From Ramlibacter sp. (lineage in GTDB: Bacteria; Pseudomonadota; Gammaproteobacteria; Burkholderiales; Burkholderiaceae_C), in the NCBI GenBank assembly GCA_046595775.1, contig JBKJOM010000132.1, positions 1,648 through 65,647 on the forward strand: a stretch of 64,000 nucleotides of DNA, given 5' to 3'. A program made the position numbers and the translations under genes. Within the stretch, counting starts at the first letter, position 1. Each line of letters starts with the position of its first letter. Shown here piece after piece: positions 36,621 to 45,136 of this stretch. The notes under the pieces were generated by a model. The model searched no databases. It saw nothing but the letters and a program-made list of their open reading frames with translations, and was not told where the DNA came from.

Positions 36621-39600
36621 TTGACCCAAAGGCCGCCGTGCCGGAGGGGACCCATCGCGAAAACCGCAGCAGGCAGTAGCCCCGCTTTGCCTCCTGGCAA
36701 AAGCGCCAGCATTGACAGTGTTGCCGCAGTGCTTTGCAAACAGGCGCAAGCGCTGACGCGCGCGCAACGCGTACTGGTGGTCGCCGGGTCCAGCGAGGGC
36801 CGGGTTGTGACAGCCGCCCGTTTGCCGCGCACCGAAGATCGCGCAAAGCTCCTGGCTGCCATCGGCCCCTGGCTGGACGAGGCTGCGCGCACGCGGCAAG
36901 CGCGCCTGAGGCACGGTCCCGACGGCAATGCGCCGCGTCACCAGCGTTCATGCATCGTCGTGCCAATGCTGGAGGGCTCCAGGCTCATCGGGCACTTGTA
37001 CGCTGACGTTGACGGCAAGCTGGCTCGTTTCACACCCGCAGATGTCCTAACACTCGAGGGCATCGCCGTCCTGGGCGCGGCGGCGCTGGAGCAGGAGAGG
37101 GCGTCGCGCGAGGCTGTCGCGCAACAAGCCGCGACCGCGGAAATCCTGCAGGCCATCAGCCGCTCGCCGGGCGATTGGCAGCCCGTGCTCGACAAGATCG
37201 TCGACAGCTGCGAGCAACTGCTGCGCGCCGGATCGATCGCCATCAATCTGCTTGGCGACGACGGACTGCTCCACCTCGGCGCCCTTCGCCTCGTCCCCGC
37301 GATGACCCGCGAGATCGAGAGGGACAGCGGCATGGATCTGTCGAACCTGGAAGAGACCGTCCGCAAGGCCTATCCGATGACTTACGCCGGCACCGGCGTA
37401 CAAGTCGTGCTGGACAGCGGCCGTATGTTTGTGAGCGCGGATGCCGCGAACGATCCACTTTGCCCCTTCGGCATCCGGCGGATGGCGGCGTACATCGGGT
37501 TCAGCTATGCAGTGGCCATGGTCCCGCTGCTCAAGGACGGCAGGCATGTGGGCGGTATCCAGGTCACGCGCCCGCTGGGCCAGCCGTTCAACGAAGCGGA
37601 GCAGGCTTTGCTCACCGCATTCGGCGAGCAGGCACTGATCGCGATCGAGAACGTGCGGCTGTTCAATGACACGCAACGGGCGCTGGAGCGCCAGACCGCC
37701 ACGGCAGAAATCCTGAAGGTGATTGCGCGTTCGCCTTCGGACGTGCAGCCGGTCTTCGATGCGATTGCGCAAAATGCGGTACGGCTCATTGGAGGCTTGA
37801 CCGCTGCGGTGACACGCGTCGAGGATGACATGGTTCATCTCGTCGCTCACACGAGTGTGAACACAGAGGGCGACGAGCTGCTGAAGCAGCAGTATCCGAT
37901 GAAGCTGTCGGAAGAGAGACCCTACACGCCTCGCATCGTCACAGTCATTCGCACAGGAAAGCCTTCAGTGGTGGAGGACATCTTTTCAAATCCGGGGGTG
38001 CCGGATAACCTGCGCGAAAGCGCGCGCGCACGCGGTTACCGCAGCGGCATCTTCGTCCCCATGCTGCGCAACGGCGTCACCATCGGCACGATCAACGTTT
38101 CGCGGCGACAGGCCGGGCCATTTCCTGACCAGCATGTCGAATTGCTCGAAACGTTCGCGTCCCAGGCCGTGATCGCGATCGACAACGTCCGCATGTTCAA
38201 CGAGACCCAGGAAGCGCTGGCCCAGCAGACAGCCTCGGCCGAAGTGCTGCACGTTATCAGCCATTCGCTGTCGGATCCGCAGCCGGTGCTGGAGAAGATC
38301 GTCGCCAGTTGCGCGAAGCTCCTGAAGGCCGCTTACATCGACGTGAACCTGATCGGTGAGGACGGTCAGCTGTACCTGCCGGAGTTGTACCTGTCGCAGG
38401 ACATGGCCGTGCACATCGCTGGCGTGGATTTCGTCCAGCTTCGAACCAGGCTTAAAGCGGCGTACCCCCAACCGCTGGCAGGCAGTGGCACCGAAGCCGC
38501 GCTGACTTCGAACGGCCTCATCTGCAGCGCCGACGTGGCAAACGATGCTGCTCTGGCCCCAGGCATCCGCAACTCGGCCGCCAAGCTTGGTTTCAGCTAT
38601 GCGGCGATGATCGCGCCGCTGCGCAAGGGTGAAGATCGCATCGGCTCGATTTTCCTGGCGCGGCGCGTCAACGATGCGTTCAATCCCCAGGAGCAGGCCC
38701 TGTTCCGGAACTTCGCCGAGCAGGCGGTGATCGCCATTCAGAATGCGCGGCTGTTCAATGAAACCCAGCGTGCGCTCGAACGGCAGACTGCGACTGCCGA
38801 AATCCTGAAAGTCATCGCTAGTTCGCCTGACGACGTGCAACCCGTGTTCGATGCGATTGCAGCGAGCTCGCAGCAGCTGCTCAAGGGCTACTCCACTTCG
38901 GTCTTCCGCATCGAAGGGGACATGCTGGATCTGGTGGCCTTTACGTCCACCAACCCGGAAGGCGACGCGGCGCTGCGCGCAACCTTTCCGATCCTGCTGG
39001 CCAACTTTCCGGTCGAAGGCGTGCGCTCAGGGCGACCGCTGCACGTACCCGACACCGACCTGGGCATCACCGCCGCTTATCGCGACATGGCCAGAGCGCG
39101 CGGCTACCGAAGCGCCCTTTTCTGCCCGCTGAAGCGCGATTCGGAGGTGGTCGGATTGATTGGTGTCACGCGCAAGGAGCCCGGCGTCTTCGCCGACCAT
39201 GAAGTCGCGCTGCTAGGCACTTTTGCGGACCAGGCAGTCATCGCCATCGAGAACGTGCGCCTGTTCAACGAAACAAGAAAAGCGCTGGAACGCCAGACCG
39301 TCAATTCCGAGGTGCTGCAAGTGATCAGCAGCTCGATCGGCGATCCGCAACCGGTGCTCTACAAGATCTTGCAGAGCTGCAACCGGCTGCTGCGGGCTGA
39401 GTCGGGAAGCGTCTTCCTGGTCGAGGAAGACCGGGTGCATCTTGCGGCCGTCCAGATGTTCGTCGAGCCGAATACCGGATCGTCCGGACTCGACGGCAAA
39501 GGGGTGGAAGACCTGATGCGAGCGAGCTACCCCGCGCCGCTGGCGGGCAGTGGCACTGATTTCGTCATACGCAGGAACGACCTCTGGATCAGCGCCAACA

Positions 39601-44396: not shown

Positions 44397-45136
44397 TCGA
44401 GCACGGGCTGCGCCACGGGTGCTTCGGGCACCGCGGGCGTCGGCTTCAAAACAACCGCCTGCTCCAGCCCCACCACCTGCTCGCGCAGCCGCTGGATGTC
44501 GGCACTCAGGCGGTGCGCTATCAGGTTGGAGACCTGGAAGGCCAGGCTCGGGTTCTGGAAATACAGCTGCTTGAACATGTCCTCGGCGATGCCGAGCACC
44601 ACGCAGTCTGTCACGCATCGCGCCGTGAGCGTGCGCGTGCGCTCGGGCGAGAAGAAGGAAATTTCCCCGAAGATCTCACCGGCCGGTTGGCGCTTGCCGA
44701 TCTCCACCAGTTCCAGCTTGCCGGACACCAGCAAGTGGATCGAATCAGCGGGGTCGCCCTTGCTGAACAGCATGGCGCCCGCTTTCAGCTTGTGCGTGCG
44801 CATGTAGGGCTTGAGCCAGAGGCCCTTCACGTCGCCCGCGCCCGTCGCCGCATCGACCTGTTGCGTGAGCCGGCGGATTTCAACCAGGCGCCAGGCATTG
44901 ACCGGAATCAGCACGAGGTACAGAACGATGTTGGCCGGCTCGGGCGCCAGGATCGCGCCCACCAGCAGCAACACATTGCTGCCCACCGTCAGCGCCCGCA
45001 AGGGCATCATGGTGCGCACGAACGACGCCCAGATCACCAGCCCCACTCCGGACAGCGTGAAAGCCAGCATCACGATGCCGCGCGTGCTGCTGAACGGGCG
45101 CACCAGTTCGCCCCACAGACCCGACAAGCCTTCCAC
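44384..45136 (-). CDS. Membrane protein with cyclic-nucleotide-binding domain (Popeye-like, no HTH)
   Basis: About 3 N-terminal TM helices (MMPLRAL...NAWRL); LFSKGD...SGKL...FGEISFFSPERTRTLTA phosphate-binding cassette. Confidence 0.85.
   Translation of the reverse strand: MEGLSGLWGELVRPFSSTRGIVMLAFTLSGVGLVIWASFVRTMMPLRALTVGSNVLLLVGAILAPEPANIVLYLVLIPVNAWRLVEIRRLTQQVDAATGAGDVKGLWLKPYMRTHKLKAGAMLFSKGDPADSIHLLVSGKLELVEIGKRQPAGEIFGEISFFSPERTRTLTARCVTDCVVLGIAEDMFKQLYFQNPSLAFQVSNLIAHRLSADIQRLREQVVGLEQAVVLKPTPAVPEAPVAQPVLDQVA

Follow-up and report, generated by a model that had tools for sequence, protein, structure and literature searches.

A conserved kinase-Hpt-cyclase phosphorelay and an adjacent membrane cyclic nucleotide-binding protein: a candidate signalling module of Burkholderiales

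We analysed a stretch of 64,000 nucleotides (positions 1,648–65,647 of contig JBKJOM010000132.1, assembly GCA_046595775.1; hereafter, the window) from a soil Ramlibacter-like bacterium, whose metagenome-assembled genome comprises 3.98 Mb in 353 contigs and is 89% complete. Four adjacent genes in the window encode a hybrid histidine kinase, a stand-alone Hpt phosphotransfer protein, a receiver (REC) domain fused to a class III nucleotidyl cyclase and a membrane protein with a cyclic nucleotide-binding (CNB) domain. We consider them here as a candidate signalling module that would lead from a His-Asp phosphorelay to a cyclic mononucleotide (cNMP) and on to the membrane. The genes and their phospho-sites are as follows:

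36621..43052, plus strand: soluble hybrid histidine kinase, 2143 amino acids; Pfam finds nine GAF stretches, HisKA, HATPase_c and two Response_reg domains
41535–41537, plus strand: kinase phospho-site His1639, in HisKA
42408–42410, plus strand: kinase phospho-site Asp1930, in receiver 1 (REC1)
42828–42830, plus strand: kinase phospho-site Asp2070, in receiver 2 (REC2)
43052..43378, plus strand: stand-alone Hpt phosphotransfer protein, 108 amino acids; Pfam Hpt E 1.2e-13
43214–43216, plus strand: Hpt phospho-site His55, in the motif AAHSLKS
43371..44396, plus strand: receiver-class III nucleotidyl cyclase fusion, 341 amino acids; Response_reg 4e-27, Guanylate_cyc 2.3e-23
43536–43538, plus strand: cyclase phospho-site Asp56, in the receiver
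44384..45136, minus strand: membrane cNMP-binding protein (CNB gene), 250 amino acids; cNMP_binding 5e-16, hydrophobic N-terminal helices

Read directly from the sequence, the three plus-strand genes overlap at both junctions: the Hpt ATG overlaps the kinase stop codon in a TGATG at 43050–43054, and GTGGCTGA at 43371–43378 forms an 8-nt overlap between the Hpt and cyclase genes. A Shine-Dalgarno-like GGAAGGA lies upstream of the Hpt start and a GGAG upstream of the cyclase start, plausible ribosome-binding sites for both internal starts. The cyclase TGA (44394–44396) and the stop codon of the CNB gene (44384–44386, CTA on the plus strand) produce a 13-nt tail-to-tail overlap. These four genes, the two plus-strand overlaps, the tail-to-tail overlap and all His and Asp motifs had been described in an earlier sequence-only reading of the locus, and its coordinates match the open reading frames (ORFs) and translations. 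Because the layout recurs in other genera (see below), it exceeds chance.

All three receivers, two in the kinase and one in the cyclase, pass Pfam PF00072 and contain the DD (or ED), D, T and K residues. The Hpt protein scores 51.5 bits against PF01627, for which the cut-off is 24.6, and has the conserved His of the HxxKG/S motif. The kinase start is ambiguous: the TTG at 36621 follows the preceding stop by 2 nt, and codons 23, 37 and 53 are in-frame TTG or GTG triplets that provide alternative starts at about 36687, 36729 or 36777. No transmembrane (TM) segment was found in the kinase by hydropathy (maximum KD19 1.52).

Orthologues of the REC-cyclase were sought in 150 genomes, each representing a different genus of the same family. 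Full-length orthologues of 60–75% identity were present in 8 of the 150, and two more were found at 48%. We mapped up to 20 kb around these ten genes with hidden Markov models built from the window's domains and their matches, and compared selected proteins with Pfam. At eight loci (L156, L157, L158, L160, L161, L162, L163 and L165), all from other genera and with cyclase identities of 48–74%, the cyclase gene is immediately preceded by genes for a stand-alone Hpt protein and for a hybrid kinase that carries two receivers. Because the same order is kept at eight loci of other genera, we regard the core of REC-REC kinase, Hpt and REC-cyclase as a conserved, predicted operon, and the sequence-only reading, which had taken this relay as a unit, is upheld on this point. 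In one genome (G084, contig C1, near 940 and 953 kb), the orthologue is split into a receiver half (76% identity, within an 863-residue ORF) and a cyclase half (71%) on opposite strands and 13 kb apart, a possible case of rearrangement or domain shuffling.

The CNB gene is tied to the cyclase by several lines of evidence. In three other genera (L160, L161 and L162), a gene of the CNB family lies directly downstream of the orthologous cyclase in the same direction, within about 60 nt of it or overlapping it, and forms a four-gene operon with the relay trio. The family is present in 6 of the 8 genomes with a cyclase orthologue and in 9 of the 142 without (one-sided Fisher p = 9e-6), a figure inflated by relatedness in this sample of one genome per genus; genomes that share ancestry do not count as independent, and the link is overstated by these statistics. 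The density of strong cyclase domains around 80 CNB-family loci is 4.0 per 100 kb in the nearest 5 kb and 1.1 per 100 kb at 5–10 kb; cyclase density in the window's own genome is 0.3 per 100 kb, and that near CNB-family genes is about 13-fold higher. In addition, the family accompanies cyclases of quite different build. In Variovorax and others it lies, usually convergently, beside a roughly 1100-residue cyclase-AAA_16-TPR (STAND) protein; in Caenimonas sedimenti (L089) and another Ramlibacter, genes for a kinase, a receiver, a REC-cyclase of the His/Gly clade and a CNB protein run in one direction; and in other genomes short stand-alone or GAF-linked cyclases flank the CNB-family gene on either side. 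The linkage of CNB and cyclase genes in relatives, as claimed from the window alone, was thus not refuted by the synteny check, with linkage at three of six informative related loci and co-occurrence across genomes. From these comparisons we suggest that a functional link between the CNB family and cyclases is likely, though not universal, and that the family may represent a membrane module for cNMP sensing, hard-wired in many cases but not in all to a cyclase encoded nearby. The CNB protein of the window most likely reads the product of the neighbouring cyclase.

Two further observations concern these neighbourhoods. At L054, L056, L064, L075, L086, L088 and other loci (Caldimonas, Roseateles, Paucibacter), the CNB gene adjoins a gene for an NB-ARC/TPR protein of about 960 residues, whose N-terminus resembles cyclases only weakly (E 1e-5 to 1e-8) and is not matched by a cyclase family of Pfam; judged by its sequence, this protein may be a degenerate relative of the cyclase-STAND proteins. 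In the window's own genome, cyclase and CNB matches lie within about 2 kb of each other on three further contigs, C206 (22.7/24.8 kb), C251 (9.2/11.3 kb) and C329 (0.1/0.5 kb), and because of these three additional pairs, pairing of cyclase and receptor seems to be a general habit of this genome.

The structures closest to the catalytic domain of the cyclase belong to class IIIb, namely Synechocystis Cya2 (PDB 2w01; E 8e-31) and Pseudomonas CyaB (3r5g; E 3e-22). The metal-binding Asp168 and Asp212, as well as Asn289 and Arg293, align with their counterparts in Cya2, CyaB and Rv1625c (1yk9), placing the enzyme in class III (PF00211). The specificity pair is formed by Gln208 (43992–43994) and Thr282, with Glu/Gly of Cya2 and Lys/Thr of CyaB in the same alignment columns, and conforms neither to the canonical ATP pair (Lys with Asp or Thr) nor to the canonical GTP pair (Glu with Cys or Gly). 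Because Gln and Thr are kept in all cyclase orthologues down to 48% identity, we regard the pair, on this comparison, as a stable feature of the clade and not as decay. Moreover, the metal Asp pair, Asn289, Arg293, the C-terminal Lys and the Gln are conserved in the orthologues of 60–75% identity, and other cyclases in these genomes often have Gln at the specificity site. It is probable that the enzyme is active. With Gln in place of the specificity Lys, a product other than cAMP is conceivable; cAMP is most likely, and cGMP or a mixed product is possible given the Gln/Thr pair. Mycobacterial Rv0386, an active adenylyl cyclase, presumably also carries Gln at this site. Rv0386 produces cAMP (PMC10745434). 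In the 48%-identical protein at L165 (8938–10818, plus strand), encoded behind an eight-GAF kinase and an Hpt protein, the Asn, the Arg and most of the first metal-binding motif are lost; by its sequence it looks like a pseudo-cyclase retained in an intact relay.

AlphaFold models of the CNB protein (pLDDT 86 for the whole protein, 92 for the membrane part) display an N-terminal helix, three TM helices (residues about 18–99), a CRP-like β-roll (residues 113–184) and a long C-helix (residues 196–230). The phosphate-binding cassette (Gly157-Glu158, Arg168-Thr169) is intact and aligns with that of cAMP-bound GlxR; the domain belongs to PF00027, and the model superimposes on CNB structures with Z up to 16.2 (rmsd 2.5 over 121 residues). 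The family, which we refer to as 3TM-CNB, comprises proteins of about 205–250 residues, mostly from Burkholderiales. A profile search yielded 323 clusters at E up to 1e-30, and the 323 loci in species-level genomes derive mostly from Variovorax, Caldimonas, Rhizobacter, Roseateles, Paucibacter, Ramlibacter and other Burkholderiales. In an alignment of 72 diverse members, Arg168 is invariant; the membrane domain likewise has an invariant Leu46-Arg47, and its Pro78, Asn80 and Arg83 show conservation of 90% or more. This conservation of membrane residues argues for a function of the membrane part beyond anchoring.

In databases, members are labelled "Crp/Fnr transcriptional regulator". This label is wrong, because the family lacks a DNA-binding domain. 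No helix-turn-helix family of Pfam was found in 26 close members, and among 72 wider members there was a single HTH_39 match at E 0.01; the window's protein, with three TM helices towards its N-terminus and nothing beyond the C-helix except a disordered tail, does not qualify as a Crp/Fnr transcription factor. The prediction of a homodimer scored 0.35, compared to the tool's mark of 0.42. In four proteins (P0126, P0184, P0152 and P0146), the 3TM-CNB unit is fused to HisKA-HATPase-REC, GGDEF, an HlyD-like region and DUF697, respectively; from their domain make-up, these would be cNMP-controlled membrane proteins with explicit outputs, which fits a signal-receiving module.

The membrane part appears to be related to YgjV. 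Matches to Imp-YgjV (PF10688) were obtained for 28 of the 72 wider members (best E 2.8e-7, most matches below the Pfam cut-off), always pairing N-terminal residues 5–70 with profile positions 89–157 of 159, that is, with the second half. Because of these matches to the second half, we assign the membrane part as a probable YgjV-type three-helix unit; the window's own CNB protein gave no PF10688 match at E up to 1. The inner membrane protein YgjV of Escherichia coli has two such halves and no CNB domain, whereas the 3TM-CNB family has one half joined to a CNB domain. A literature search returned no paper that establishes the function of YgjV. PF10688 presumably falls into the same clan as the SWEET and PQ-loop transporters. 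A profile of the membrane part had only three matches among PDB sequences, all SemiSWEETs and not significant (E 3–7), and a match of one wider family member to MtN3_slv (E 0.1) is likewise not significant. Foldseek also ranked a SemiSWEET first (E 0.8, TM-score 0.51–0.57), which is too weak for helical bundles, and VIA-align returned generic three-helix membrane bundles (NuoJ, Z 10.6); no fold was assigned. Searches with the whole model (Foldseek against the PDB, VIA-align) matched the CNB domain alone.

Two further genes adjoin the module in the window:

45140..45691, minus strand: YidB-like gene (PF20159, Pfam; junction to the CNB gene read from the sequence)
35596–36618, plus strand: LigB-family gene (best NCBIfam match 4,5-DOPA-extradiol-dioxygenase, E 3e-65, slightly below cut-off)

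Pairing of a CNB and a YidB-like gene was seen at just one other locus of 80, and the YidB-like gene was dropped as a module part. The LigB-family gene ends 2 nt ahead of the kinase ORF and may share the relay transcript here; no LigB-like gene was found adjoining orthologous relays at the mapped loci, and it too was dropped.

Several observations weigh against a link between the CNB protein and the cyclase. In the window, the CNB and cyclase genes converge and, because the CNB gene starts only 3 nt past the YidB-like stop on the minus strand, it is probably co-transcribed with the YidB-like gene and not with the cyclase. The three nearest homologues of the CNB protein (L046, L048 and L040; 56–63% identity) have no cyclase on their contigs, three of seven informative cyclase loci (L156, L158 and L159) have no adjacent CNB gene, and 26 of 40 well-flanked CNB-family loci lack a strong cyclase domain within 5 kb. 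A cyclase neighbour is also missing from three distant family members, on contigs of just 1.3–7 kb that are uninformative. Because the genome contains 12 cyclase and 18 CNB domain matches, cross-talk between cyclases and receptors is possible; with these numbers, 14 Hpt matches and the closest CNB homologues lacking a cyclase, the terms "self-contained" and "dedicated" used in the sequence-only reading are not supported. The relay could thus be real and the CNB protein a general membrane receptor of the cNMP pool, or part of an operon with the YidB-like gene, that neighbours the cyclase by chance, and in one genome (G208) the CNB gene and a Gln/Thr cyclase indeed lie on different contigs. We consider this explanation rather unlikely, since it does not account for the co-directional adjacency in three other genera, the co-occurrence (6 of 8 versus 9 of 142), the cyclase density near family members, about 13-fold above the genome average, or the partnership of the family with cyclases of unrelated build in further genera.

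The cyclase and the membrane CNB protein might alternatively constitute an abortive-infection pair with a membrane-damaging effector, similar to Pycsar/Pucsar and placed under two-component control. The logic would be the same, as those systems combine a class III-type cyclase with a cNMP-sensing 3TM or TIR effector (PMC11224242; bioRxiv 10.64898/2026.08.12.744502), and the CNB family elsewhere adjoins cyclase-STAND-TPR proteins; a STAND-fused cyclase lineage is predicted to be immune (bioRxiv 10.64898/2026.08.12.744502). In addition, the cyclase matches PADLOC PycC models (best 6.8e-24) and the CNB domain matches the nucleotide-binding part of PycTIR (best 3.2e-17 in the wider family). However, the PycC match reflects generic class III homology, the PADLOC membrane-effector models match none of 72 family members, and the membrane domain matches YgjV, which is no known defence effector family. 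Physiological signalling is the usual setting of a receiver-fused cyclase whose phosphorelay operon is kept from genus to genus, and the window neighbours are metabolic genes (LigB-like dioxygenase, esterase, DUF2889) and not defence genes. Taken together, a defence role appears improbable. We assign a still smaller likelihood to the idea that the cyclase domain is catalytically weak, or serves only for regulation or dimerisation, such that no second messenger is made: Gln208 in place of the canonical Lys or Glu and the degenerate catalytic domain at L165 speak for such a loss, but the catalytic residues conserved in the 60–75% identical orthologues and the frequency of Gln at this site in other cyclases of these genomes make it very hard to credit.

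Returning to the phosphorelay, we found its input side to be variable. The nine GAF units of the kinase are mutually 28–54% identical and therefore are presumably old duplications. Two roles ascribed to them in the sequence-only reading fared poorly. A feedback by cNMPs through GAF domains has no sequence support, as a pattern search for the NKFDE signature (N[KR], 5–24 residues, F, three residues, DE) found it in none of the nine, although GAF domains may bind cNMPs in another mode. The integration of many ligands is speculation, as the GAF array is no fixed part of the module. The kinases of L161 and L162 and one of two at L160 have no GAF domain and instead carry N-terminal regions of 260–310 residues without a Pfam match; the remaining orthologous kinases have 4 to about 12 GAF domains. 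Because GAF number thus varies from 0 to about 12, the array would be a swappable input and not a defining part of the relay. At L158 (2–7719, plus strand), the kinase upstream of Hpt is represented by two consecutive ORFs with seven and five GAF domains, which reflect either a frameshift within one giant kinase of 12 GAF domains or a kinase preceded by a GAF-only protein. At L160 (1–9670, plus strand), two hybrid kinases, one with about nine GAF domains and one with none, both precede a single Hpt gene, which suggests that two sensors feed one phosphotransfer protein.

Individual features of the proposed module have precedents. The cyanobacterial CyaC proteins of Spirulina and Anabaena are class III adenylate cyclases under His-Asp phosphotransfer control. 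Dictyostelium ACR is likewise a class III adenylate cyclase under His-Asp phosphotransfer control (PMC3009899). As in the window, a histidine kinase, receivers, GAF sensing and a class III cyclase are united in one pathway, with a receiver directly before the catalytic domain. However, CyaC and ACR are single polypeptides described without an Hpt domain, whereas the window encodes three proteins for a four-step His-Asp-His-Asp relay, and, unlike them, has a soluble kinase with nine GAF domains, Gln and Thr as specificity residues and a membrane receptor linked to the cyclase. With Pycsar/Pucsar, the window shares a class III-fold cyclase beside a cyclic-mononucleotide sensor acting at the membrane, and its CNB domain resembles that of PycTIR. 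In contrast to the window's receiver-controlled enzyme, Pycsar cyclases are stand-alone and phage-triggered; Pycsar 3TM effectors are by description of the pJV1-spdB3 family, whereas the window's effector combines a canonical CRP-like CNB domain with a YgjV-type domain. Adjacent cyclase-receptor pairs are known from Xanthomonas, where a guanylate cyclase accompanies a CNB-GGDEF receptor for cGMP, and from Sinorhizobium, where CyaD1, CyaD2 and CyaK operate with Clr. The Xanthomonas receptor (PDB 5h5o) and Clr (7pza) were among our structure matches. In these cases, too, a class III cyclase and a cNMP receptor are co-encoded as a private signalling line, but the receptors are transcription factors or c-di-GMP enzymes, whereas here a small membrane protein without a recognisable output domain takes this place.

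Every part of the module is therefore of a known kind, and phosphotransfer-controlled class III cyclases and cyclase-receptor gene pairs are known already; the 3TM-CNB receptors as a family, and the recurrent association of their genes with those of cyclases, appear not to have been described before. A literature search found no characterised bacterial 3TM-CNB protein and no characterised Hpt-fed cyclase, and no paper on a system with this exact layout, in agreement with the earlier statement to that effect. New are the pairing with a mislabelled family of YgjV-type 3TM-CNB receptors and the conserved Gln/Thr cyclase clade.

The architecture of the receptor also calls to mind the Popeye proteins POPDC1–3 (PF04831), in which three TM helices precede a cytoplasmic CNB-like domain that binds cAMP, and which lack an enzymatic output (PMC5872366). 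By language-model features, POPDC clusters were the nearest named ones once PF00027 clusters had been set aside (0.84, below the tool's evidence level), and bacterial clusters near the TM part carry PF04831 on 15–44% of their members. A direct PF04831 match was not significant (one of 26 close members, E 0.33), and PF04831 is absent from the 25 families listed for the 72 wider members; moreover, the nucleotide cassette of 3TM-CNB proteins differs from POPDC in being of the canonical FGE...RT type. A cluster of about 99-residue proteins, labelled as deriving from Uroviricota (tailed phages), scores 0.87 against the membrane part by language-model features, with PF04831 on 44% of its members. 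We treat the likeness to Popeye proteins or SemiSWEETs as a lead only. It is conceivable, if doubtful, that the 3TM-CNB family is a bacterial counterpart and possibly a distant relative of POPDC effectors, a cNMP-gated YgjV/SemiSWEET-like unit that provides a portable output for phosphorelay- and STAND/TPR-driven cyclases; if so, a class of cNMP effectors that is poorly understood would gain a simple model in bacteria.

On balance, we favour with some confidence the interpretation that the four genes represent a conserved Burkholderiales signalling module, in which a kinase-Hpt-REC-cyclase relay would make a product that is read by the adjacent 3TM-CNB protein. Beyond the observed domains, motifs, gene coupling, conserved synteny and co-occurrence, we infer a direction of phosphate flow, activation by phosphorylation, a product, its binding and a membrane output. 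In the proposed mechanism, the cytoplasmic hybrid kinase would sense ligands via its variable GAF array and autophosphorylate on His1639. The phosphate would then pass via one of the two kinase receivers to His55 of Hpt and on to Asp56 of the cyclase receiver. Phosphorylation of Asp56 most likely would switch on the cyclase dimer through the helical linker that connects the receiver and the catalytic domain, yielding a 3',5'-cyclic mononucleotide, likeliest cAMP and possibly cGMP or a mixture. The 3TM-CNB protein would bind this product via its phosphate-binding cassette, and its YgjV-type three-helix domain would convert binding into a membrane event, most likely gating or regulation of solute passage.

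Little of the cyclic mononucleotide signalling of non-enteric bacteria has been mapped. Genomes such as the one studied here encode a dozen cyclases and more receptors, and hardly any cyclase has been matched to its receptor. Our analysis provides a conserved four-step relay ending in a cyclase, a non-canonical Gln/Thr cyclase clade and a widespread, mislabelled family of membrane receptors. If the link between the two proteins holds true, a systematic Crp/Fnr annotation error would be corrected and a handle on the function of the YgjV-type domain gained, and the 3TM-CNB family would represent a new kind of bacterial membrane cNMP effector.

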